Origin: Candidatus Taylorbacteria bacterium RIFCSPHIGHO2_01_FULL_46_22b
GTDB taxonomy: Bacteria > Patescibacteriota > Minisyncoccia > Phycocordibacterales > DSPV01
Length of the DNA: 64,000 bases
Direction: 5' to 3'
Assembly (NCBI GenBank): GCA_001820875.1
Contig: MHRF01000004.1
Span: 17,434-81,433 of the forward strand
Part shown: positions 38,909 through 48,586 of the stretch, one piece after another
How positions within the stretch are numbered: the stretch's first letter is position 1
How the letters are laid out: each line of letters opens with the position of its first letter
Program-made: the position numbers and the translations under genes
The notes under the pieces: model-generated
The model's input: only the letters and a program-made list of their open reading frames with translations
The model's database searches: none
What the model was told of the DNA's origin: nothing

Positions 38909-39520
38909 CTACTTAGCCGTGCTCAAAAAAGAATAATCTAGATATTCTTTTTTGAGTCCCTCTCTCCCACTTGCGGTTAGAGAAGAGCCGAGGGCGTCTA
39001 AATAAAACCTCATACCTTCCATAATAAACCTAAACTTCTCAATATGTCTTTTCAAAAACTCAGCAGAAGAGATAGCCTTTCGTAACTCTGAATGACGATT
39101 CCCTTCTTCCGTGTAAATCGTAGAGATTGAATGTCCGTGTAGTAGCTGATTACGTATTGATGAGAAATCTTTGAGCTTTTCAATAATTTGATGATACTGG
39201 CTAGCTATTTCTAGCTTCCCAGAGAAATCAAAATTTGATGTGTAAACAAACATCGTAACCTTGTCACGGAAAGAGACGTTATCTAAGTTTTTCATTATCT
39301 TGAACTCATCGATTTCTTTTTTTATGGTCGGAATAACTATATGTCTAAACAAGGCATTGATCCCAATCTCCAGAACAAGATGGAGGGCGATAAGGAAATC
39401 TATTATTTCCTCCTCTGCTAGGGTCTTCTTTTGTAAGAGTCGATGGCACCTCTCTCGGTTAGAGTGTAAAAGGTAGACATGTTCCGTTCTTGCTTTCACT
39501 GAGACATTTATTTGGATCAT
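38909..39520 (-). CDS. Hypothetical protein with an HEPN-like Rx4H motif
   Basis: RNQLLHGH in the C-terminal third. Alpha-helical. Overlaps the upstream Ymh-family gene by 4 nt (ATGA). Confidence 0.4.
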   Translation of the reverse strand: MIQINVSVKARTEHVYLLHSNRERCHRLLQKKTLAEEEIIDFLIALHLVLEIGINALFRHIVIPTIKKEIDEFKIMKNLDNVSFRDKVTMFVYTSNFDFSGKLEIASQYHQIIEKLKDFSSIRNQLLHGHSISTIYTEEGNRHSELRKAISSAEFLKRHIEKFRFIMEGMRFYLDALGSSLTASGREGLKKEYLDYSFLSTAK

Positions 39521-40233
39521 TGTATTGAGTCAACAATTCTAAGGAGAGTATTCGCAATATGAATGATGTCAGCCGCCTCACGTGGATCGGTAAGATTCAC
39601 ATAGCGGTGGCTTGAGGGATTCTTGTAAGTACCTATCGCTCCAGAGAACAACTCCATACGAGCTTGCTGTTCAGCAGGATGTGCAGTTTTATCGACAAGC
39701 GGAGCAGAAGGAGGACCAAACGCTTTCCTCATGAGGTCAACACCAATCTCTTTTTCTGAGAGACCTGCCTTTGTTCGTACGCGTACCTCTACTTCCTTGA
39801 ACGCCTGAAAGATGGCAGTATCATAGTCACCTCTTATGAATGATTGTTTTACTTTCCTCACAAGGATAGAATCAAGACCATCTGATGGAAGTAAATATCC
39901 TTGCCGGTAGGTATCAAAATCTTGAGAGTCAAGTACTTTCTTGCCTCTGTGTGTTATAAACATCCAATCATTATTTCCTGGCTGTGGTGCAATAAAAAGT
40001 TCTTTTTCTAGCCACATCCATGCAACGGAAAAGCGTTCAAGAACCGATTGTCCTTGTTTATAGGATCCAGCCCAATCAACAAACTCTCTATCTGTACCTA
40101 ACAAGAAATTATGACGATTGAGTTTACCTTGTTCTGCCCTACCAAGATGTTTTAGGACAAGAGGAGCAAGTTCCTCCGGCTCCATCTCAAGGACAGCCTC
40201 TGGAAGTGGATATATTTCTGAATAAAGTGACAT
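39517..40233 (-). CDS. TIGR02391 / Hypoth_Ymh-family protein
   Basis: The C-terminal ~120 aa (LMRKAFGPPSAPLVDK...ELFSGAIGTYKNPSSHRYVNLTDPREAADIIHIANTLLRIVD) match the Hypoth_Ymh consensus. Confidence 0.6.
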   Translation of the reverse strand: MSLYSEIYPLPEAVLEMEPEELAPLVLKHLGRAEQGKLNRHNFLLGTDREFVDWAGSYKQGQSVLERFSVAWMWLEKELFIAPQPGNNDWMFITHRGKKVLDSQDFDTYRQGYLLPSDGLDSILVRKVKQSFIRGDYDTAIFQAFKEVEVRVRTKAGLSEKEIGVDLMRKAFGPPSAPLVDKTAHPAEQQARMELFSGAIGTYKNPSSHRYVNLTDPREAADIIHIANTLLRIVDSIQ

Positions 40234-40293
40234 TTTGGAATAATACCATTCTCTAGTATGTGGTGCCTTTCAAAATCCTAAATATCTTTGAAA

Positions 40294-40719
40294 TTACAAC
40301 CATCTAGCTACGCCCCCATGATGGGAACAGGTGCCGCGTCTGCTTTGGCTGAAGCTGTAGGTCCCATCTCGGCATTGCGCTGTCGCACCTGCTGGGATGG
40401 ATGGAGCGTAGGCTGGAGAATGTACGGTATTGCCTGCGCTATTGGTGTAGTAATTGTCGTTTGAAAGAGGTGTTTGTTCTGAAGGTTCTGGCTGATTCGG
40501 AGCGATCTGTTTTACCGGAACAGAAGGACTCGGTGCTACCTGACTTACTTGTGCTGTATTGAAGGAGTTTATTGCCGCCGTAGAGTCTTGAACTGACCTA
40601 GTTTGGCTACTTGAATCGCCAAAGGCTCCAAGGAGCACTATAAGCCCGAAAAACGCTATAGGTATGATATAACGCTTCTTTTGGTACCATTTCCTCGTTT
40701 TTCGATCCTGTGTAGCCAT
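40294..40719 (-). CDS. DUF3761 domain protein, membrane-anchored
   Basis: C-terminal CRDGTYSFSQSRRGTCSHHGGV is the DUF3761 signature. Confidence 0.7.
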   Translation of the reverse strand: MATQDRKTRKWYQKKRYIIPIAFFGLIVLLGAFGDSSSQTRSVQDSTAAINSFNTAQVSQVAPSPSVPVKQIAPNQPEPSEQTPLSNDNYYTNSAGNTVHSPAYAPSIPAGATAQCRDGTYSFSQSRRGTCSHHGGVARWL

Positions 40720-40795
40720 AATGCTTTTGCAAGCACCATACTAGGCATGGGGAGAGAAAAAGCAAGAACTCTTAGAGTGGAGATAAATCCTCCAA

Positions 40796-41878
40796 TTATT
40801 CAGAAAAGAAAGAATCGCTTATTTCATCGGCAATAAAACCTGAAAATCCACCCCCGCGCATTTCAATCCGAGTTGGAAACATTTCCAGAGAATCTTTGAT
40901 ATGTTTTGCAATTCGCTCTGCACTTTCAATAGTACTAGAAACTACTAGCAACTTATAGCCCATTGAAGGAAGAAGCTTTTTTAGATTTTGAAGTAAGAGC
41001 TGATCACCGGCTTTCCAGCCAATGACAAGAATCCGGTCTACTTGGGGTAAATCGATAAGAAGCCGCTGAATATGTTCGGGGTGACAGATATAACGATCTT
41101 TTCCAAGAAGAGGTATTGCAATGGCTGGAAGTTCAATGAAATCATTTCTTTCACTATGTTCTTTTAGCTCATCTTGGTGGTAAAGCCCAACATCTTTTTT
41201 CCGGTGTTCTTCTAAGAAATCAGGATTTTTTATACACCATGAAAAACCGTCAATTTCCTCCGGTGAAGTACCGTACTCTATATTGGATTTTCGGTGTATA
41301 TACGCCCAATCATGCGACCCGTGGAGTTTTATAATCTTTAGACCACCCTCTAAATAATCCCGCATCCTCTTGAATGTTCTATGTGGAATGCTCTGCTCAA
41401 ACAAACTATCGTAGTTGAATGTCGCAACAAGCGCTTTTCCGCTCGTATGGGTGTTTATGCGGTTTACAAGAGATTTGTAGTTATTGACCTGCCGCGCCTT
41501 CTGGAAATCTTCCTCGGAAAGCGGAGATAAACCCCTATTAGAAATTTCCTTGAAAAGTGCCTGTAAATAAAACTCCAGCGCAACGAAATGCACTCTCATC
41601 TGCTCAGAATGTTTTGTGCGCTCTTTTATTTCAGTAAGTACCTCTTCAAAGCCACGTTTCTTTTCTTTTACTTGAAGAAGTATGTCTGACAGGAGATCGC
41701 CAGCTCCGGGGTACTTTCCAAGTAACGTATGCAAGAGAAAGTGGTCCTCCACTAAGTCTTTCGTTAGAGGTCCAACTTTTGCTATCGGTGAATAATCGTA
41801 TGAAGCTCCAGCACCGAGGATAATAAGTGGGTAAGCCATTACATTGGCTATATTACTCCTTAGAGAATCTCCCGCCAA
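40796..41878 (-). CDS. SIR2_2-family protein (standalone SIR2-like, defense-associated family)
   Basis: LIILGAGASYD (the GAGxS motif), TFNYDSLFE (cf. TTNYDxLLE) and KLHGSHDW, as in ThsA/DSR-type SIR2 domains. Confidence 0.75.
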   Translation of the reverse strand: MAGDSLRSNIANVMAYPLIILGAGASYDYSPIAKVGPLTKDLVEDHFLLHTLLGKYPGAGDLLSDILLQVKEKKRGFEEVLTEIKERTKHSEQMRVHFVALEFYLQALFKEISNRGLSPLSEEDFQKARQVNNYKSLVNRINTHTSGKALVATFNYDSLFEQSIPHRTFKRMRDYLEGGLKIIKLHGSHDWAYIHRKSNIEYGTSPEEIDGFSWCIKNPDFLEEHRKKDVGLYHQDELKEHSERNDFIELPAIAIPLLGKDRYICHPEHIQRLLIDLPQVDRILVIGWKAGDQLLLQNLKKLLPSMGYKLLVVSSTIESAERIAKHIKDSLEMFPTRIEMRGGGFSGFIADEISDSFFSE

Positions 41879-41895
41879 GCATAAAAGCAGGACGA

Positions 41896-42093
41896 CTAAG
41901 TGACTAGGTTGAGAAAGTCCATCACCGCGGCCGGATCCTCGTTCTCGTCCAGCCGGCTCGCCACCCTCTTCAAAGCTTCCTGGTACTCTGGTTTCCGGAC
42001 CTTCGCCAGCAATTCCTCTATCTCCTCCATTGAGGGAACGTTCTGTTTTTGTATCAATTCTTGCATCTTTTTTACTCCGACATGTCTAGCCAA
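41896..42093 (-). CDS. Small acidic hypothetical protein (65 aa)
   Basis: ORF only. Coupled to the SIR2-like gene. Confidence 0.3.
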   Translation of the reverse strand: MARHVGVKKMQELIQKQNVPSMEEIEELLAKVRKPEYQEALKRVASRLDENEDPAAVMDFLNLVT

Positions 42094-42851
42094 TCCTGAA
42101 TCGCCTGGCGCGCCTCCGGAGACGGGTTCCGTCCCGCTTCGTTCACCCTCTCGCCGTCCTTCTTGAGCAATTCTCTCCGCTCGCTTGGACTGGGCTTTTC
42201 TAATTGCATTTTCTCTTTTGTAAGTTCTGGGTCGTATGTTGACATCTTATCCGTCATCTCTAGGTACTCCTTTACCCTCGCCCTTGATTCTGGGGAGTGG
42301 AGTCTCTCGGTATTCCGACGAGCTAACTCGCGGGATTCTGATTCCGTCATTCCGCCCTTGTACACCTTTTCGTTTTGTTCCACCTTTTTCGCTTCTTGAG
42401 GAAACACAAACCCAAAGTATTCATTTACTCTTCCTTTTTCAATTTGTTGTTCTTTTGGTATCACTCCTATCTCAATCAAAAAATGGTAGACTCCTATTTT
42501 CTCAAGGGGATGCCATTTTTTACTTACTATCTCAGATAACACACCCGAAACATTTCTCTTTTCTAAAATACATCGAGCAGTTTGTTTGCCCTTTGCCAAA
42601 ATGCCCGATCTAAATATACGTTGAGCCTTTCTCTCTTCATGCTCATGATGTAATCTCTCATTTTCCTTTTCTATCATCATCTTATAATGCTCTTGTGTAG
42701 AGAAATATGCCAAAGCTATACCGGTCCCAAAGACGATACCCATTTGCCAGTTTGTAATTGCCAAGGACAAAGAAATGACAGTAGCTATAGCAAGAGCGAT
42801 AAAGAAGATTACTTTTAGCGCCTTCCACATAACATTATCTTCTTGCACCAT
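42072..42851 (-). CDS. Hypothetical membrane protein with a charged coiled-coil C-terminus
   Basis: Two N-terminal TM helices followed by a K/E-rich region. Confidence 0.45.
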   Translation of the reverse strand: MVQEDNVMWKALKVIFFIALAIATVISLSLAITNWQMGIVFGTGIALAYFSTQEHYKMMIEKENERLHHEHEERKAQRIFRSGILAKGKQTARCILEKRNVSGVLSEIVSKKWHPLEKIGVYHFLIEIGVIPKEQQIEKGRVNEYFGFVFPQEAKKVEQNEKVYKGGMTESESRELARRNTERLHSPESRARVKEYLEMTDKMSTYDPELTKEKMQLEKPSPSERRELLKKDGERVNEAGRNPSPEARQAIQDWLDMSE

Positions 42852-43275
42852 GTCCCCAATTATCTTCGACCGGAACGTCTTTTTTTACCTTTGATACCCA
42901 CTCAGCATGAAGAAAACTCTCAGCAAAATAAAATAAAGTCATCAAGATCGTTATACGAGCCATTGAAGCTGTAAAACCGACTGCGCTTACTATAAAGGTC
43001 GCTTCGCTACGTCCAACGAGTAAAAAGATACTGACTAGAAAGAATATCCCACCTAGCAGAGCACACAACAGACCTTTCTTATAATATTTACCCTTCACCC
43101 AAGGAATATGAGAGAGGAGAATATCTAAAATAACCAGCACGCTTATACCGAGCGGGAGGGCTAGGATAATACCCACGGTATCATTGGGGGCGATTAGTAT
43201 TCCAAGTAACCAGATTGGAGCACTCCATGTCCAAACTTTTTTCCAAAGGATTTTCTTATTTTTCATGGGAGGCAT
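42835..43275 (-). CDS. Hypothetical polytopic membrane protein
   Basis: 146 aa with 4 TM helices. Confidence 0.45.
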   Translation of the reverse strand: MPPMKNKKILWKKVWTWSAPIWLLGILIAPNDTVGIILALPLGISVLVILDILLSHIPWVKGKYYKKGLLCALLGGIFFLVSIFLLVGRSEATFIVSAVGFTASMARITILMTLFYFAESFLHAEWVSKVKKDVPVEDNWGHGARR

Positions 43276-43374
43276 ATTACTGATAAACCCCCGCGATCAG
43301 GCAACAAAAAGCCCACCACGGGTAGTGGCTTGCGCCACTCATACCGGTTTCCCGATATGGCCAGATACAGCGAC

Positions 43375-43460
43375 CCCATGATGGGTTCTTTATGCTGTAT
43401 CTGGTCTTTTCGCCATGCCCGGACAAGGGTTTAGGCTACTTTCAATATTCAATTGTTACT
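43375..43460 (+). repeat. ~85-bp direct repeat copy A (about 80% identical to 46575-46650), flanking the DGR cassette
   Basis: Shared core ATGATGG..TGCTRTATCTGGTCTTTTCRCCATGCC..GGTTTAGG. Confidence 0.5.
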
Positions 43461-43765
43461 TCATAATAGCGCAAAAAGGGCTTCTGGTCACTTTCTTTAC
43501 GTTTAGAAATTGGGTGTTGCGAAGAGGTATTACCAACAATCGGAAAATCATTGACATATCGTCATAAATATGATAAGCTTAGTAAAAGTATAGGTCATTG
43601 TAATCCAAGGTTCAAAACTATGAGACGAGTCTCTTGGTGATCTCTGTGAGGTCTTCAAAATACTCGTCTCATACCAGAGCGAGTCCCAACCACCTGTTGG
43701 TGTCAACAAAACCCGCCTAAAGTCGAAAGACAAAGGCATCAGTACAGTACAGAAAGAGAAAAGTT

Positions 43766-44605
43766 ATGAATACAAACTCTGATCGCGGTATATTCGCTCT
43801 GAGTGTTTCAGAGCTCGGTCCGACATTGGGAGCGCTTCAAAAGCATGGTGTTACCGTGGCACATCTCGATATGCTCCGTGCCAACAACGGCGACAACGAC
43901 TACGCTAAACGGTTTGCCCAAGCTCTCACCCTCAAGGCCTTCGAAACTTCAACCGACACCCGCATCGCGCGGCTCGTCCTCGGCAAGTCATTTGTTGACG
44001 TCGCCGACTGGGTGACCCTCTACGGAGCTCGGTTCAGCAGGAAGGAAGTGCACCAGGCGCTCAAGTTCCCGTGGCACGAAGATATTCTGATGGGTCCTTG
44101 CCCCTTCAATCCGGGCAAGCTCGTCAAGGACACACACACCGCGTTTCTGGGGCTAGAGAAACTCAACGGCTCGCCGCTCAATGTCATGAAGTGGAACGAA
44201 CTGCACCCGAAGAAGGACGACCTCCAGCCTCGGATGTACTGCGACCCGAACCCCTGGTACGCAACCGAGAAACACACGACAGAAGTCCTGCTCCAACCCC
44301 GCTGGTACCTCATGCTCACCGAAATCGTCCCGGACTCATGGAACAAACTCCCTGAAGAGCAGGAACAAATGCTCCCCAAGGAGTACGAAATCCCGACGAC
44401 CGTCGCCGAAACCACGAAGGACCTCCTGGTTTTCCGAAAGACCGACATACGTCCTAACCCGACACGTTGGGCACGTTGCGCCGAGAAGACCTCGGTCGGC
44501 CTCCTCTCGTGCGTTGGCGTCTTCGACGAGTGTGGCCTCCTCGTCGACTTCTGGCTCGGCTACCGCCACGACTTTGTGGGCCTTGGTGCCTCCCGGAAGT
44601 TCTGA
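43766..44605 (+). CDS. DGR target (variable) protein with a C-terminal variable repeat
   Basis: The last ~35 codons are the VR, matched by the downstream TR except at TR adenines. No signal peptide. Confidence 0.8.
   Translation: MNTNSDRGIFALSVSELGPTLGALQKHGVTVAHLDMLRANNGDNDYAKRFAQALTLKAFETSTDTRIARLVLGKSFVDVADWVTLYGARFSRKEVHQALKFPWHEDILMGPCPFNPGKLVKDTHTAFLGLEKLNGSPLNVMKWNELHPKKDDLQPRMYCDPNPWYATEKHTTEVLLQPRWYLMLTEIVPDSWNKLPEEQEQMLPKEYEIPTTVAETTKDLLVFRKTDIRPNPTRWARCAEKTSVGLLSCVGVFDECGLLVDFWLGYRHDFVGLGASRKF
44490..44596 (+). repeat. DGR variable repeat (VR)
   Basis: 107-bp alignment to the TR with about 19 mismatches. Every mismatch is at a TR adenine, mostly in AAC codons. The 3' IMH-like GC-rich end is identical. 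Confidence 0.85.
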
Positions 44606-44645
44606 ACCTCGAACACTTGAGGGCTTGCCCCTCTTGATTCCCTTG

Positions 44646-44684
44646 AGCCCTCGCGCAAATTTTTTGCGAGGGCTCTTTTCTTTT
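44646..44684 (+). terminator. GC-rich hairpin plus T-run downstream of the VR
   Basis: AGCCCTCGC...GCGAGGGCT then CTTTTCTTTT. Could be a terminator or a DGR homing-enhancing hairpin. Confidence 0.55.
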
Positions 44685-44964
44685 ACATGCTACAATAATC
44701 GCATCCTGCTAATGCAGATTGGATTACGGTTCAATCTCGCGGGGTGTCTCACCTTTGAGATTCGCCAGAATGCCCTTGGTTTACGGATCAGGACAGCGTG
44801 CGAGGAAGGATGAAGATTTTACTTCTTGTTCGTTTCTAGCGGAGGTGTTTCCGAAAGGAAACTGCTCCCGAATAAAATTCAGGACTGAGAGGATATAGGT
44901 GGGCGAAAGCTTGCGGTAAACCTCAAGGTTCGGTGCCTTGGACGGAAGCGGACAACATTTCGCG

Positions 44965-45071
44965 ACTCGGACGGCAACCTCTCGTGCGTTGGCAACTTCG
45001 ACGAGAATGGCCTCAACGTCAACAACTGGAACGGCAACCGCAACGACAATGTGGGCCTTGGTGCCTCCCGG
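44965..45071 (+). repeat. DGR template repeat (TR), noncoding
   Basis: Adenine-rich (AAC)n-containing copy of the VR. The in-frame ORF across it is a translation artefact. Confidence 0.85.
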
Positions 45072-45122
45072 CAGTCATCTCTTCGCCGAGAAGAAGCCTG
45101 CCATGTGGCGGGCTTCTTTGTA

Positions 45123-45473
45123 TCATCGCTCTTTAGATGATCTTATCCATCCTCCGAGCATCCTGCCAATCTCATCAAGGCTCACCTCAATGGAGACGTA
45201 CCGCTTCCCGTCAATCGCTTTGACGTCCTTTGCAAGTCGGACGAACACACGCAAGAAGTTGAGTTTGAGACTCGTCTTCTCAAGAATAGGAACTTTCTCT
45301 GCTTTACCTATTTGGCTTGCCAATAGGATTCCCTCCAACACCTCAAGCAACAGCTCCTCGCATTTCTGCCAAACGGTGTAACGGTCCTGTTTGGGGATGC
45401 TAGAGCGATAGGTGTGGAAGGATTTGTATAGATCGTACGTTTTCTTGAAAATTGGGATGTCTAAATCATGCAT
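45123..45473 (-). CDS. avd: Accessory variability determinant (Avd, four-helix-bundle protein)
   Basis: 116 aa. The C-terminus EIGRMLGGWIRSSKER resembles BPP-1 bAvd VGRILGSWIARVNRK. Basic helical bundle. Confidence 0.75.
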   Translation of the reverse strand: MHDLDIPIFKKTYDLYKSFHTYRSSIPKQDRYTVWQKCEELLLEVLEGILLASQIGKAEKVPILEKTSLKLNFLRVFVRLAKDVKAIDGKRYVSIEVSLDEIGRMLGGWIRSSKER

Positions 45474-45478
45474 GGTAT

Positions 45479-46528
45479 ATGAAAATTTATAGGGACGTAT
45501 ATGCGCGAATGATCTCTCCAGAAAACCTCTTTCGGGCGTGGAAGGTATTCAAGGAGAATAAGCGCAACAAAGTGGATGTAATGGAATTTGAAATAAATCT
45601 TGAGAAAGAAATTTTCAAGTTGCACCGAGAACTGAAAGACAGGACGTACCACCACGGTCCTTATAGCGGGTTTTGGATTCGCGATCCGAAGTTGCGACGC
45701 ATACATAAAGCGACGGTACGCGACAGAGTTTTGCATCATGCGGTGTTTAGAATTCTCAACCCGATTTTTGAGCCAACATTCATTGCCAATTCGTTTTCGT
45801 GCCGCATCGGTAAAGGGACACATAAAGGGATGAGGAAGGTTGCCGAGATGATTCGCGCGAAAAGTGGTAACTACACACGGGAATGTTTTGCGTTGAAATG
45901 CGATATACGAAAATTCTTTGACTCTATCGATCACGATATTCTGCTCCGGATTCTTGAGAAGAAAGTTGTGGACAAGAGGATGCTGTGGCTCCTGCGCGAA
46001 ATCATCGAGAGCTTCACCGCGAGCAGACCGAACCTCTTTGACCGACATGGTGTACCCATCGGCAATCTGACGTCTCAAATATTTGCCAATATTTACATGA
46101 ACGAATTTGATCAGTTTATAAAACATGCCTTGCATGTAAAAGACTACGCAAGATACACGGACGACTTCGTGATTATTTCGAATGACAGAAAATATCTTGA
46201 GTACCTGCTTGAACCCATACGTGAATATCTTTCGCATACGTTGCACATTGAACTTCACCCGCACAAGATTCTGTTGCGAGAGTGTAAGCGTGGTATTGAT
46301 TTTTTGGGTTACGTTATATTGCCACATCATATTGTAGTGAGGAAGAAAACAAAGCAGAGAGTTCTCAGAAAACTACGGGAACGCGTCGCTCAATATCGAA
46401 ACGGAAATATCAAAGAAGAAACCCTCTGGGGATCGCTTAGCTCGTACCTAGGCGTTCTCTCTCATGCGGATGCCTACAAGTTGACAGAGGAGACACTAAA
46501 CAATTTCTGGTTTTGGCTGAAAGAGTGA
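45479..46528 (+). CDS. DGR reverse transcriptase
   Basis: RT motifs 1-7: RRIHKA, DIRKFFDSIDHD, VPIGNLTSQIFANIYMNEFD (the DGR-specific IGxxxSQ), YARYTDDFVII, KRGIDFLGY. No maturase or endonuclease domains. Confidence 0.9.
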   Translation: MKIYRDVYARMISPENLFRAWKVFKENKRNKVDVMEFEINLEKEIFKLHRELKDRTYHHGPYSGFWIRDPKLRRIHKATVRDRVLHHAVFRILNPIFEPTFIANSFSCRIGKGTHKGMRKVAEMIRAKSGNYTRECFALKCDIRKFFDSIDHDILLRILEKKVVDKRMLWLLREIIESFTASRPNLFDRHGVPIGNLTSQIFANIYMNEFDQFIKHALHVKDYARYTDDFVIISNDRKYLEYLLEPIREYLSHTLHIELHPHKILLRECKRGIDFLGYVILPHHIVVRKKTKQRVLRKLRERVAQYRNGNIKEETLWGSLSSYLGVLSHADAYKLTEETLNNFWFWLKE

Positions 46529-46574
46529 TATTCGAAATACAAAAACCCACCGAGGGAAGAGATTAGCATTTATC

Positions 46575-46650
46575 ACACCCTATGATGGATTTGTGCTATA
46601 TCTGGTCTTTTCACCATGCCAGCGACTTGCATCGCGGTTTAGGTCGTAGC
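46575..46650 (+). repeat. ~85-bp direct repeat copy B
   Basis: See copy A. Confidence 0.5.
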
Positions 46651-46689
46651 ATTATTCATTTGTAAACTCATTTTACCACAAAAGAGCTG

Positions 46690-47430
46690 ATGAAAAAAGA
46701 GCTGAAAACGAGTAGGGCGGAAGAAGTCTATCTTGATGCAATTGAACGGAAATCTTTCAAAACAGACTTAGATGCTTTCATGAAAAGATTCCGGGTCCCG
46801 AATCCCAAACTCCACACAGAGGAGAAAATAGAAGAATGGCTTTTGGGCATGTTTCAAGTGGCGTTGGAATACCGCTTCCCCTCTCCTTTTCTCAAACCAA
46901 GAAAAGACAATAAATATCCAAAAGCATCTGAATATATCCCAGCAAGAATTGCTTTTCTAAAGAAATATAGGTTCTCTGTGGACATGAACGGCAATGCTAT
47001 GGACGAAATCATAGGAGGAAAGGTCCCGGCATACACAAACGTTGATCTTGAAACCCCGATTGAACATGAGGAGAGAATAAACGGAAGACGTTCTTTGAAG
47101 ATTGTTGTTTATGCGGGAGCCACTCGGGAAGAGGTTCTCAACTACATCAAGCGATGGTGGAAATATCTGAGGAAACATCTGGAAGGAAGCCAGAAGGTAA
47201 AGAGGGTCCGGGTAAAAACCAAACGCAAAGAAGATGCATTGGCAGATTTCTACAGTCGGAAACCTGTTCGTGAACTTATGGTTATCTTGGGGGAAAAAGT
47301 AAAACCCGAATATAAAGCAACTCTGGTTGAGCGAATCCTGAACGAGATACATGGTTACCCCTCCAGAGATTATCTATCCCTCAATAGAGCTGTATACCGA
47401 AAAAGAGCACGAACTCTATCTGACAAATAA
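46690..47430 (+). CDS. Hypothetical protein (element-borne)
   Basis: 246 aa, basic. No recognised motif. Confidence 0.45.
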   Translation: MKKELKTSRAEEVYLDAIERKSFKTDLDAFMKRFRVPNPKLHTEEKIEEWLLGMFQVALEYRFPSPFLKPRKDNKYPKASEYIPARIAFLKKYRFSVDMNGNAMDEIIGGKVPAYTNVDLETPIEHEERINGRRSLKIVVYAGATREEVLNYIKRWWKYLRKHLEGSQKVKRVRVKTKRKEDALADFYSRKPVRELMVILGEKVKPEYKATLVERILNEIHGYPSRDYLSLNRAVYRKRARTLSDK

Positions 47431-47677
47431 GTAGGCCTATTTTATTGTCTTATACAACGTGGCTCTGAACCAATATCCTGGAAACACCAGGGTATTTTTA
47501 TGTCCAGAGCTGATACAAAATGCGGGGAGAAGTTTACAAGCGATCTAGCGTCGTTCTTTGACTTTCTTGCGCGTTTTGATTTTGAGGACAAACAAAAGGA
47601 GCAATCTGCACTGGGCTCCGGTCCTTTAGTTTCAGCTCCTAAGGGACCGGGGTCGAGTTCTGATTCTCAAACATATA

Positions 47678-48199
47678 ATGGAGCTGAAACTAAAACTTAG
47701 ATTCAAGAGGAATAACGGCTGGTTCTTTATTCACAACAGAGAGGCTGAAAGAATTGGCAATGCTTTTGGCGCTATTGGCTTAGCGGTGTATATTTTTCTT
47801 TGCAGGAGATCTGATCTCAAGACACAAAAGTGCCATCCAAGCCAAAAGAGAACTGGCAAAGATATACAAAAAAGTGCTAAGTGCGTCCAAAAATACATAA
47901 GACTTTTCCAAGAAGCTCGAATAATAGGTATTGAGAGAGGAAAACACGGAGGGAGGTGGCTAAATAACACCTATACCCTAATAGATATGAGCGAGTGGCT
48001 AATACCAGAGGAAATAAGTTCCTCTGGTAAGAGCAAAGACTCTCGATCTCCACCAGAGGAAAATAATGCCGCTAACCAAGGGCAATACATTCCCCGTAAG
48101 GAGACTCTAATAAATAAGGAAAACAATGTATGCAAAAAAGAAAATCAAGAGTTGATAGAAGGAAGAAGAAAACTAGCGCAAAAGTGGAGAACGTCCTAA
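47678..48199 (+). CDS. Hypothetical HTH / replication-organiser-like protein (weak)
   Basis: Possibly a winged-helix N-terminal region (FFIHNREAERIGNAFGAIGLAVY). Low confidence. Confidence 0.35.
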   Translation: MELKLKLRFKRNNGWFFIHNREAERIGNAFGAIGLAVYIFLCRRSDLKTQKCHPSQKRTGKDIQKSAKCVQKYIRLFQEARIIGIERGKHGGRWLNNTYTLIDMSEWLIPEEISSSGKSKDSRSPPEENNAANQGQYIPRKETLINKENNVCKKENQELIEGRRKLAQKWRTS

Positions 48200-48552
48200 A
48201 GAATCCTAGATGGGAACTCTTCTGCCGATACTATTCTGGAAATCCTGAAAGTATCGGGAACGCAACAAAGGCATATATGCTGGCATATAACCTTCCCCAA
48301 AATACCTATGGAACTGCCAACAAGAACGCATATCGGTTGATGGTAAATGAGGGTATTTTGAGGCGCATAGAAGAGCTCCAAGAGGTGTACATGAAAAAGG
48401 TTGATTTTGAGCTAGCGTTTGTCATTGGACAGAGAAAAAATCTTGCCGCAAAAGTTGCCGCTCTCAAGGAGTTCTACAGGAAATCTCCTAGGGTCAATGG
48501 GGGTATAAAAAAATCGCAGGAAGTCACTTTTCGATGGCTTGAGGATAAATAA
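48130..48552 (+). CDS. Terminase small subunit-like protein (Terminase_2/P27-like HTH)
   Basis: NPRWELFCRYYSG...NATKAYMLAY...RRIEELQ resembles the phage TerS N-terminal DNA-binding domain. The start codon is uncertain. Confidence 0.45.
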   Translation: MQKRKSRVDRRKKKTSAKVENVLKNPRWELFCRYYSGNPESIGNATKAYMLAYNLPQNTYGTANKNAYRLMVNEGILRRIEELQEVYMKKVDFELAFVIGQRKNLAAKVAALKEFYRKSPRVNGGIKKSQEVTFRWLEDK

Positions 48553-48586
48553 AAGCAATCTAAGATAAAAAGAGTAAAATAAATCT

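Follow-up and report, generated by a model that had tools for sequence, protein, structure and literature searches.

The flanking repeats and the DGR between themIn the 64-kb window analysed here (the whole stretch of DNA), a DGR is bracketed by two imperfect direct repeats, which raises the question of whether these repeats mark the ends of a mobile cassette or are elements of another kind. An earlier reading of the DNA by itself (the sequence-only reading) had described them as about 85 bp long and about 80% identical, lying upstream of the DGR target gene and downstream of the RT, and had offered three explanations: a separately acquired cassette, a duplicated promoter or a small RNA. Below, the repeat on the target-gene side is called copy 1 and that on the RT side copy 2 (Table 1).

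The DGR is genuine, as seen from its adenine-specific TR/VR mismatches, RT and Avd. TR and VR are 83% identical, 18 of their 19 mismatches lie at TR adenines, and wherever the VR differs between samples (10, 15 and 12 differences in three contigs), the site is a TR adenine. The RT has 7494 homologues at E ≤ 1e-30, the best of which, with 60-71% identity, belong to Patescibacteria. The bAvd gene stands head to head with the RT gene, with 5 nt between the start codons, a layout found throughout the RT clade. The integrase module beyond copy 2 encodes a large serine recombinase as well as a 246-aa protein, an HTH protein and a small-terminase-like protein; at its 3' end, the recombinase gene adjoins a group I intron (50286-50519, minus strand; Rfam Intron_gpI, 86.5 bits). 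Between the two repeats, no recombinase was found among the Pfam domains. In contig L004, the mobile element of the window recurs at 99.6% identity, whereas the chromosomal flank reaches only 65-80%.

Table 1 Positions in the window of the two repeat copies, their parts and the neighbouring genes.
Feature	Position	Strand	Basis
Copy 1, canonical LOOT with 5' leader box (ACAAUUGAAUA...), 3' tail and U-run	43303-43457	-	covariance models
Copy 1 P1	43412-43436	-	
Copy 1 AAAA linker	43407-43410	-	
Copy 1 P2	43361-43404	-	
Copy 1 P3, GAAA loop	43340-43359	-	
Copy 1 P4, GCAA loop	43324-43339	-	
Copy 1 pseudoknot strand L (CCCAUCAUGGG), P2 apical loop, pairs with T	43375-43385	-	family covariation
Copy 1 tail strand T (CCCGUGGUGGG), partner of L	43312-43322	-	family covariation
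Copy 1 terminator-like end: T, then C, then U5 run (43306-43310)	43306-43322	-	
Copy 1 promoter-like site: GTGACC, 17-nt spacer, TATTAT	43463-43491	-	consensus scan; putative
Gene string downstream of copy 1	38909-43275	-	ORFs, Pfam domains
DGR target gene, 279 aa, VR at 44491-44600	43766-44605	+	VR/TR pair
DGR template repeat (TR)	44966-45075	+	VR/TR pair
bAvd accessory gene	45123-45473	-	PF22296, E = 6e-17
DGR reverse transcriptase (RT)	45479-46528	+	PF00078 (RVT_1), E = 4e-23
Copy 2, mini-LOOT	46540-46663	-	R1 model, alignment to copy 1
Copy 2 P1	46613-46645	-	
Copy 2 GAAAAG linker	46607-46612	-	
Copy 2 P2 5' strand	46593-46606	-	
Copy 2 loop strand L	46578-46589	-	
Copy 2 tail strand T	46546-46556	-	
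Copy 2 U5 run	46541-46545	-	
Copy 2 promoter-like region: extended -10 TGGTAAAAT (46670-46678), then ACAAATGAATAA box	46664-46683	-	sequence inspection
Integrase module, divergent from copy 2	46690-50353	+	Pfam

The similarity of the two copies is real. A gapped local alignment of ~43373-43476 with ~46577-46683 scored 61, compared with 16.0 ± 2.2 (maximum 28) for 2000 shuffles, which corresponds to a z of about 20; the similarity thus lies at the coordinates given by the sequence-only reading and is significant under an alignment statistic. The 64 kb contain exactly two occurrences of the 27-nt core TGCTRTATCTGGTCTTTTCRCCATGCC (43393-43419 and 46594-46620), where about zero are expected by chance and none of 100 shuffles held two, and a repeat search returned a 31-nt pair of 90% identity between the copies. 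Copy 2 scored 57 against copy 1 and no more than 31 against the rest of the window. Global alignment extended the homology to lower coordinates, down to 43303 and 46540, across a 30-nt gap in copy 2, and both copies terminate in a common CCC-N5-GGG-U5 tail. The repeats therefore span ~43303-43476 and ~46540-46683 overall: their length is ~125-170 nt and not 85 bp, and their identity is only ~75-80%, with indels and without a sharp boundary. Neither the repeat search nor the alignments found an exact core of more than 14 nt shared by the copies. The placement also stands, copy 1 lying 329 nt upstream of the target start and copy 2 ending 11 nt past the RT stop.

Structure of the two copies

Both repeats are features of the minus strand, which the sequence-only reading had overlooked: copy 1 faces away from the target gene, and copy 2 is directed into the RT gene at its 3' end. 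They are RNA elements of that strand rather than cassette ends, namely two members of the LOOT family within a serine-recombinase mobile element of a CPR/Patescibacteria bacterium. LOOT (Rfam RF03000; Weinberg et al. 2017, PMC5737381; Rfam 14, PMC7779021) is an orphan structured RNA that was earlier known from metagenomes only; its Rfam entry type is 'Gene; sRNA', and no function is given for it in these two papers. Among the three explanations offered earlier, the small RNA came closest, copy 1 being a bona fide LOOT RNA and copy 2 a reduced relative. The duplicated promoter was partly right, as the same promoter-like box lies upstream of both copies on the minus strand.

Copy 1 aligned with the full Rfam model (positions 1-121) at 86.9 bits (43324-43437, minus strand), above the gathering score of 46.4 bits, and with R1, a covariance model built in this analysis on 53 LOOTs, at 128.8 bits (43306-43437). 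The long P2 hairpin of LOOT is present, as are P3, capped by a GAAA loop, and P4, capped by a GNRA loop; copy 1 further resembles the Rfam family in its P1 with a CCUAAAC/GCAUGG loop and its A-rich linker. The predicted fold has an MFE of -60.7 kcal/mol (z = -5.4). The Rfam model (121 positions) stops at P4; beyond it, a scan for terminator-like sites gave a match on the minus strand at 43328-43313, followed by GCTTTTTGTT. From the promoter-like site and the conserved box, we infer that transcription of copy 1 may start near 43457. The first downstream ATG lies 27 nt from the U-run and opens a minus-strand gene string that encodes a 146-aa membrane protein (42835-43275), a 259-aa ORFan and a SIR2-like 360-aa protein (its SIR2 matches being weak in PADLOC), as well as DUF3761, Hypoth_Ymh and a 203-aa protein. 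The favoured reading of this arrangement is that copy 1 would be the 5' leader of an accessory-gene (membrane-protein/SIR2-like) operon.

In both copies, P1 encloses a CCUAAACC/GGCAUGG internal loop and is followed by the AAAA linker; the columns of both loop and linker are invariant among the 53 LOOTs. P1, P3, P4 and a new helix between the P2 loop and the tail all covary in this set, the loop-tail helix being paired in 99.1% of cases with both-sided changes in 7 of its 8 pairs. Some of the pseudoknot pairs are G·U and would become A·C mismatches if the opposite strand were read, which speaks for the assigned strand. Most other LOOT loci share an upstream layout of a TATnAT-like hexamer, 6-8 nt and ACAAYTGAATA, a putative promoter; the U-run is degraded in some LOOTs (CUUAGUG, CUCAGUG).

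Copy 2 retains P1, the linker and a short P2 as well as the promoter box, the U-run and a putative loop-tail pseudoknot; its P1, its linker and the 5' part of its P2 are shared with Rfam LOOT. It differs from the family in having neither P3 nor P4: the 30-nt gap takes out the P2 3' strand together with P3, and the P4 region is unpaired. It scored 33.1 bits (E = 2e-6) with R1 and 15.8 bits with the Rfam model, under the gathering score. Since P3 and P4 are missing, copy 2 was classed as a reduced LOOT-like variant (mini-LOOT) and not as a member of the Rfam family. Its MFE, calculated with the pseudoknot ignored, was no better than that of shuffled sequences (z = -1.5). A script found 7 contiguous pairs in its loop-tail helix (AUCCAUC/GGUGGGU), to which a GGG/CCC extension was added by eye, and this helix was likewise no better than shuffles in a crude control (P = 0.25). 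Because neither the fold nor the helix exceeds shuffles, copy 2 could be decaying. Its promoter-like region, which was not called by the consensus promoter scan, lies within the 27-nt gap ahead of the divergent gene 46690-47430 and can be aligned with the region upstream of copy 1. Copy 2 is thus tail to tail with the RT stop and divergent from the integrase module, and the first sense gene downstream of it is bAvd.

LOOT in CPR genomes and beside the DGR clade

The sequence-only reading had held that a motif found upstream of many unrelated genes would speak against a cassette, and this is what the search of related genomes returned: LOOT stands upstream of varied genes in 70-odd CPR genomes or loci with no RT inside the fetched 8-kb blocks. 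Most genomes hold a single copy and several hold 2-3. In 54 of 63 loci, no more than 60 nt separate the U-run from the start of a same-strand ORF; the products are unrelated to one another, and many have a hydrophobic, signal-peptide-like N-terminus, as judged by eye. Such functional heterogeneity is unusual for a ligand-sensing leader. Just ahead of the downstream ATG, the linker and P2 5' strand are repeated in 9 of 60 loci (0.6 expected), which offers a possible alternative partner for the P2 3' strand.

A large serine recombinase was present in the 8-kb block of 34 of the 74 LOOT occurrences (two of the 74 being the window's own copies), located upstream and divergent in 26, downstream on the same strand in 7 and downstream on the opposite strand in one. 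At least 10 loci have a tRNA gene adjoining the recombinase 3' end, mostly within ~150 nt, and the LOOT-integrase layout of the window is also present in other genomes. From these contexts, the host group of LOOT appears to be CPR/Patescibacteria, and its usual place would be the head of a cargo operon beside the integrase of tRNA-integrating elements.

In about 9-10 loci of this RT clade beyond the window, some of them related, LOOT-like sequence occupies the position of copy 2: directly beside the RT stop, on the strand opposite to the RT, L095/96, L097, L099, L102, L103, L117, L139, L144 and L173 have a mini-LOOT or P1-only remnant, and L163 has a full LOOT. The proposed mini-LOOT, made up of the box, P1, an A-rich linker, a short P2, the loop-tail helix and the U-run, is found in the window and in L095/96, L097, L099, L117, L139, L144 and L173, and the ACAAATGAATAA box also precedes the mini-LOOTs of L097, L099, L117 and L173. 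Because model-guided alignment was unreliable here, covariation was read locus by locus; the loop-tail helices have 6-12 contiguous pairs of differing sequence (for example CCUCGCAAAA/UUUUGCGAGG, UCCUCAUAA/UUGUGAGGA and UCCUCGUCAG/CUGAUGGGGA), in a small sample and with a crude shuffle control. Full LOOTs number 12 in 90 clade loci and are antiparallel to the RT in 12 of 12, while the LOOT models gave no significant match in 72 outgroup DGR loci. As judged from these loci, the pairing of LOOT with DGRs of this RT clade is not accidental. The L097/L173 lineage even repeats the flanked layout, with a full LOOT upstream, a mini-LOOT at the RT stop and a target gene that differs from that of the window. 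Most LOOT-bearing clade loci have one copy only, and the L090-92 cassette, a close DGR relative in another context, has LOOT on neither side. The clade DGRs occupy unrelated contexts: an island (the window), a phage-like contig (L089) and a position between CobA and ribonucleotide reductase (L090).

Possible roles and comparison with known systems

The best overall explanation, which we hold with moderate confidence, is that the repeats are paralogous LOOT regulatory RNAs, cis-acting leaders close to their promoters that recur beside this DGR clade, and not recombination scars that define a cassette. The LOOT pseudoknot and U-tract would set the share of transcription entering the downstream genes. 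In the case of copy 1, these would be the genes of the membrane-protein/SIR2-like operon; transcription that passes copy 2 would cross the RT in antisense, reach avd on the same strand and could thereby tune the DGR. To reach avd from copy 2, ~1 kb of antisense-RT transcription is needed. Input of this type is not essential for avd, as neither a mini-LOOT nor a convergent gene follows the RT in many members of the clade. In a broader scheme, rather unlikely as a whole, LOOT would control the accessory-gene slot in a widespread family of tRNA-integrating serine-recombinase elements of CPR bacteria, and the reduced form of LOOT would have been recruited as a built-in regulator of the DGR clade that gates antisense transcription across the RT. 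Such transcription would supply avd mRNA and oppose the RT/TR transcripts, leading to RNA-switched mutagenic retrohoming, and in a DNA-level variant the LOOT/mini-LOOT direct repeats would allow DGR capture or loss by recombination.

As a counterpoint to the leader reading, LOOT is a stand-alone sRNA in Rfam and its U-run could simply end a small RNA. Both copies would then be trans-acting sRNA genes whose position reflects the promoter and terminator sites of the mobile element, a proposal that we consider unlikely. It accords with the Rfam type, the promoter-like box and terminator-like end of each copy, the lack of a sense ORF directly downstream of copy 2 and other mini-LOOTs, and the 2-3 copies in several genomes; however, the ORFs close behind the U-run in 54 of 63 loci leave no space for a separate promoter, the P2 5' strand recurs at the ORF start region in nine loci, and degraded U-runs are unexpected for an obligate terminator. 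Alternatively, copy 2 may be a decaying LOOT pseudogene that lost its 3' half and downstream genes at the arrival of the DGR or after a local duplication, so that the flanking is accidental. The gap and lost P4 pairing, the low Rfam and folding scores and the P of 0.25 for its loop-tail helix are in line with this, as is its closest relative among 83 LOOT-like segments being copy 1, albeit narrowly (15 vs 13), and its position being that of full LOOTs beside related integrase modules (L042, L055, L064 and L083). We nevertheless regard such decay as improbable, since reduced LOOTs with the same parts and different helix sequences lie at the RT stop in about nine other loci, and independent decay would not be expected to leave the same modules at a tight spacing from the stop codon.

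Highly improbable, finally, is that the repeats are recombination substrates bounding a mobile DGR cassette, for instance one that entered a resident LOOT from a circular intermediate by a single crossover and could later be excised. The direct repeats do closely bracket target-TR-avd-RT, the bracketed layout recurs in L097/L173 with a different target gene, and cassettes of the clade are found in unrelated contexts. Against this stand the L090-92 cassette, the single copy in most LOOT-bearing clade loci, the ~70 LOOT loci that show no RT, the divergence with indels in place of an exact stretch typical of att cores or target-site duplications, and the lack of a recombinase between the repeats; nor was a contig with an empty site found among the relatives, where presence or absence of the segment between the repeats had been suggested as a check. 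Repeats of the att or target-site-duplication type were rejected on the grounds of LOOT without a DGR, DGRs without LOOT and the absence of an exact core. The widespread motif, the close DGR relatives lacking it and the RNA-level covariation thus argue against the separately acquired cassette of the sequence-only reading; its idea of a tie between repeats and DGR is to some extent backed by the L097/L173 layout and the mini-LOOTs at the RT in about ten loci, but not as a cassette marker.

LOOT hereby gains a host group, a location at the head of cargo operons, parts that had not been modelled and a reduced form tied to a DGR clade, and the related genomes connect this orphan RNA with mobile elements and retroelements of CPR bacteria, which are tiny and uncultured. 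The loop-tail pseudoknot, U-run, 5' box, CPR host range, integrase linkage and RT-adjacent mini form are new with respect to the LOOT literature examined. If the cis-leader reading is true, it would provide a handle on the expression of accessory and defence-like genes by CPR mobile elements and, to our knowledge, the first hint of RNA-based DGR control outside the TR-RT transcript. Even if it is false, repeats flanking a DGR have proved to be a known RNA family and are unfit for delimiting DGR cassettes.

Like attL/attR tRNA-derived repeats and integron attC-like sites, the LOOT repeats are imperfect direct repeats bracketing cassette-like genes in a mobile element. They differ in being RNA genes with a putative promoter and covariation, single in most genomes, without an exact core and not adjacent to the tRNA at the 3' end of the recombinase gene, which is the likely att site. 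The RNA elements associated with DGRs ('RT' motifs) are located between TR and RT, on the same strand as the RT, and have a presumed role in cDNA priming (PMC5737381). Mini-LOOT resembles the BPP-1 TR-spacer RNA, RT-10 and other RT motifs as a structured RNA recurring beside a DGR RT gene, but it lies past the RT stop on the opposite strand. The RT-motif families gave no match to the mini-LOOT and DGR region of the window and only a sub-threshold RT-7 match (24 bits vs a threshold of 117) in related loci; at the mini-LOOT positions of the mini-LOOT loci searched, the RNA-family search returned only a sub-threshold LOOT match, in L117. Leader RNAs of mobile elements include transcription attenuators, riboswitches and the put-type antiterminator RNAs of phage HK022. 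LOOT has no sequence or structure similarity to such Rfam families, and the analogy is positional only: like them, it comes right after a promoter-like site and heads an operon of an integrated element, and its compact conserved fold precedes a U-tract and then variable genes; some loci also have a segment for alternative pairing where the ribosome would bind.

Identity of the two repeats

The sequence-only reading had claimed that two imperfect direct repeats flank the diversity-generating retroelement (DGR) of the window, and this similarity was borne out. The degenerate 27-mer used to describe the repeats had exactly two matches in the window, where none are expected, and a repeat search of the window returned a 31-nt pair of 90% identity. 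Gapped local alignment of 43373-43476 with 46577-46683 scored 61, against 16.0 ± 2.2 (maximum 28) for 2000 shuffles; the similarity of the two stretches is well beyond chance. In a global alignment the homology extended to 43303 and 46540, with a 30-nt gap in copy 2 and a common end formed by a CCC-N5-GGG-UUUUU tail. A tRNA or tmRNA origin was rejected, as ARAGORN found no tRNA in the window.

The Rfam scan of the window identified copy 1 as a LOOT RNA (RF03000), an unexceptional member of a known but functionally orphan family. It is on the minus strand, 43437→43324, with 86.9 bits at a threshold of 46.4, and its fold was far better than that of shuffled sequence (z = -5.4). Copy 2 reached 15.8 bits with the same model, below the threshold, and Rfam offered nothing else for it, and no family for the VR-TR spacer; a model of our own built from 53 LOOTs gave 33.1 bits (E = 2e-6, 46645→46540). 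The two copies share the upstream region, P1 with its invariant CCUAAACC/GGCAUGG loop, the GAAAAG linker, the apical loop and 5' strand of P2, and the 3' tail with the U-run. In copy 2 the 3' strand of P2 and the whole of P3 are missing, and the P4 region is unpaired. Both copies are on the minus strand: copy 1 runs away from the target gene of the DGR, and copy 2 runs into the reverse transcriptase (RT) gene at its 3' end. We assign this identity with high confidence. The earlier suggestion of a small RNA or a duplicated promoter was essentially right, copy 1 being a LOOT and copy 2 a reduced LOOT ("mini-LOOT") that shares its upstream region.

Features of the window in and around the two LOOT copies (window coordinates)
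Feature	Positions	Strand
Segment resembling a small element	38909-50353	
Copy 1, LOOT	43303-43457	minus
Copy 1, complementary P2 apical loop and tail	43306-43385	minus
Copy 1, -35/-10 consensus match	43491-43463	
Inverted repeat	43619-43673	
DGR target gene	43766-44605	
Variable repeat (VR)	44491-44600	
VR-TR spacer	44606-44965	plus
Spacer hairpin	44645-44675	
Template repeat (TR)	44966-45075	
bAvd	45123-45473	minus
RT	45479-46528	
Copy 2, mini-LOOT	46540-46663	minus
LOOT-recombinase example in the window	46690-50353	
Group I intron	50286-50519	minus

Anatomy and genomic setting of LOOT

A pattern scan of one genome per species yielded 77 LOOT loci, about six of them chance matches, and nearly all were in MAGs of CPR/Patescibacteria (Parcubacteria, Saccharibacteria, Microgenomates and others). 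A TATnAT-like hexamer recurs upstream, separated by 6-8 nt from a conserved ACAAYTGAAUA box that lies some 20 nt ahead of the model start; this arrangement suggests that the RNA begins at the box, and copy 1 is preceded by a promoter-like consensus match (see table). The P2 apical loop has its complement in the tail segment directly preceding the U-run. In the covariation alignment (A2, 53 LOOTs from L001 and the LOOT loci L012-L088) this loop-tail helix was 99.1% paired, with both-side changes in 7 of 8 pairs, and its sequence classes include CCCAUCAU/GUGGUGGG, CUCCUAGUCAG/CUGGCUAGGAG and CCUCGCG/CGCGGGG. The helix is a pseudoknot relative to P2 and also the stem preceding the U-tract. The upstream box, the loop-tail helix and the U-tract are all outside the Rfam model, the helix falling past its end. 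Pairing of the A-linker with the U-run, as drawn in the MFE fold, found no support, U-run variants being uncompensated in the invariant AAAA. Two otherwise canonical LOOTs (L035 and L060) naturally lack P4 and have the tail directly after P3, and because of them we regard P4 as dispensable and full and mini-LOOTs as a graded series.

In 54 of 63 LOOT loci the U-run is followed within 60 nt by the start of a same-strand ORF; the products are mutually unrelated, and many N-termini, judged by eye, are hydrophobic and signal-peptide-like. Together, the box, the pseudoknot and the close ORF appear more in keeping with a promoter-proximal leader than with the gene of an independent sRNA. The linker and the variable P2 5' strand are duplicated directly before the ATG of the downstream ORF in 9 of 60 loci, where 0.6 are expected (L029, L031, L050, L056, L066, L071, L079, L080, L081), about 110-140 nt after the AAAA linker, with AAGUCCUAUCAAGCA as an example of the repeated sequence. 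This suggests that the P2 3' strand may pair alternatively with the translation-start region; copy 1 has no such duplicate before its downstream ORF.

LOOT as a DGR-specific element was rejected, since homologues of the window's RT, Avd or target occurred in none of the 77 LOOT-pattern loci. A large serine recombinase was found in the 8-kb block of 34 of the 74 LOOT occurrences (the window's copies account for two of the 74; examples with the recombinase are L015, L020, L023, L030, L045, L067, L080 and L081). The arrangement was strongly ordered: the recombinase was upstream and divergent in 26, its start codon often 180-235 nt away from the 5' end of LOOT, and downstream in the others, 7 on the LOOT strand and 1 on the opposite strand. 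In at least 10 loci the recombinase 3' end adjoins a tRNA gene, mostly within about 150 nt. This placement and the tRNA adjacency locate LOOT inside tRNA-integrating serine-recombinase elements, heading a gene string that runs away from the integrase, and LOOT looks like a hallmark of such elements in CPR genomes. One genome carries two near-identical copies, L045 and L067, on separate contigs. The window conforms to the pattern: divergent from copy 2, a module encodes a 246-aa protein, an HTH protein, a small-terminase-like protein and the serine recombinase, and a group I intron (Rfam) meets the end of this module; the LOOT locus L064 has the same layout of 246-aa gene, LOOT and recombinase.

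The retroelement and the element carrying it

The DGR between the repeats is genuine and active: 18 of 19 TR/VR mismatches are at TR adenines, and the VRs of three other contigs differ from that of the window at TR-A positions only. Many metagenome contigs end at or near the VR or TR (L004, L006, L007, L009-L011, L253-L256), and these breaks, taken with the TR-A-only differences, are signs of ongoing diversification in natural populations. The accessory gene avd and the RT gene are arranged head-to-head, with start codons about 5 nt apart in the window (45471-45481) and 0-50 nt apart across the clade (L089-L172), an unusual DGR layout that is conserved in this clade of CPR bacteria; since almost no intergenic space remains, the promoter of each gene must be inside or beyond the other. 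The 360-nt VR-TR spacer contains a perfect-looking hairpin directly after the target gene; near 44690 comes TGCTACAAT, which resembles an extended -10, and the approach to the TR is rich in GNRA and probably structured. A 26-nt inverted repeat (81% complementary, 3-nt loop) between the copy 1 promoter and the target gene could be an operator or an RNA hairpin.

The element of the window is mobile: in contig L004 it is 99.6% identical as far as about 50200, against 65-80% in the syntenic chromosomal flank to the right of this point. The island with the DGR and copy 2 (about 42222-50200) is 99.4-99.7% identical in other samples (contigs L004, L008, L009 and L010), which, set against the L004 flank, implies its recent horizontal transfer between related species; comparison with these four contigs did not reveal the left end. 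The group I intron (86.5 bits, Rfam) is at the 3' end of the recombinase ORF, the tail of which translates ...GFEPTT... and resembles a tRNA T-arm. This suggests an intron-split tRNA, not called by ARAGORN, which is probably the attachment site of the element. The gene content of the surrounding segment is like that of a small integrative or satellite-like element, with a serine recombinase, an HTH protein, the DGR and a small-terminase-like protein without a large terminase. The LOOT-led string of SIR2-like, DUF3761 and Hypoth_Ymh genes could be defence cargo; as a recognised defence system the copy 1 operon was not supported, PADLOC giving weak SIR2 matches only.

Origin and possible role of the LOOT pair

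Relatives of the RT were collected by exact-protein look-ups (L089-L092) and from 80 metagenome and 80 viral loci; hits of the RT clade number at least 595 in metagenomes and 586 among viruses. Full LOOTs were present in 12 of about 90 RT-clade loci, on the strand opposite the RT in all 12, and none of 72 outgroup DGR loci (RT ≤40% identical) gave a significant match, evidence for a non-random association of LOOT with the RT clade. In L095/96, L097, L099, L117, L139, L144 and L173 a reduced LOOT, encoded opposite to the RT, directly adjoins the RT stop codon; at the same position L102 and L103 have P1-only remnants and L163 a full LOOT. Mini-LOOTs retain the box, P1, the linker, a short P2 and the U-run, with at most a small hairpin in place of P3 and P4, and their loop-tail helix comprises 6-12 pairs differing in sequence between loci. 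No Rfam family exceeded its threshold for them, a 27-bit LOOT match being all that was seen for copies other than the window's; a model-guided mini-LOOT alignment for pair counting was inconsistent and was left out of the results. In L103 and L117 the RT is followed by the mini-LOOT and then by the serine recombinase, at the customary distance of about 190 nt. The layout of the window, a full LOOT upstream facing away and a mini-LOOT after the RT, recurs in L097 and L173, a lineage with an RT 62% identical and no detected homologue of the window's target.

The proposal that the repeats delimit a separately acquired cassette was not supported. Invariable LOOT flanking of DGR cassettes was rejected. 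Evidence against a simple boundary role comes from L090-92, where the same target-TR-avd-RT unit is located between CobA and ribonucleotide reductase without LOOT, and from most clade loci, which have at most one LOOT. Relatives lacking the segment between the repeats were sought with a lineage-specific DNA pattern in JGI metagenomes and no empty-site contig was found; all contigs with the 246-aa or 146-aa flanking proteins carry the DGR. The 259-aa cargo protein is an ORFan, and no relative of the 246-aa protein turned up in IMG/VR.

Copy 2 can be aligned to copy 1 over its whole length, the remnant of the P3/P4 region included. The pair may plausibly have arisen by local duplication or gene conversion with later reduction. 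Of 83 LOOT-like segments compared, copy 1 comes closest to copy 2, by the small margin of 15 against 13, and copy 1 is closer to the LOOT of L033 than to copy 2, so that uniquely close, recent duplicates are doubtful. The L097 LOOT and mini-LOOT have CCAUCCAAG in common, too short to interpret. An origin of copy 2 from a LOOT next to the integrase, with loss of the 3' hairpins, ranks level with duplication or conversion.

As avd is head-to-head with the RT across the whole clade, its promoter must be inside the RT gene or beyond. A mini-LOOT would be a conserved leader with its own promoter, placed directly beyond the RT stop on the strand of avd, and could supply avd transcripts as well as RNA antisense to the RT. 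In L089 a single strand runs from a LOOT through methyltransferase, helicase and 239-aa genes straight into antisense RT and avd. However, in many clade members the RT is followed by no mini-LOOT and by no convergent gene, and the helices of copy 2 are the weakest of the mini-LOOT set; our confidence in such regulation is low to moderate.

The accessible literature mentions LOOT only among sRNA candidates from metagenomes and as an example for covariation software. Compared with this, its assignment to CPR bacteria and the integrase-element context, the loop-tail pseudoknot with the U-tract, and the reduced RT-adjacent variant all appear to be new.
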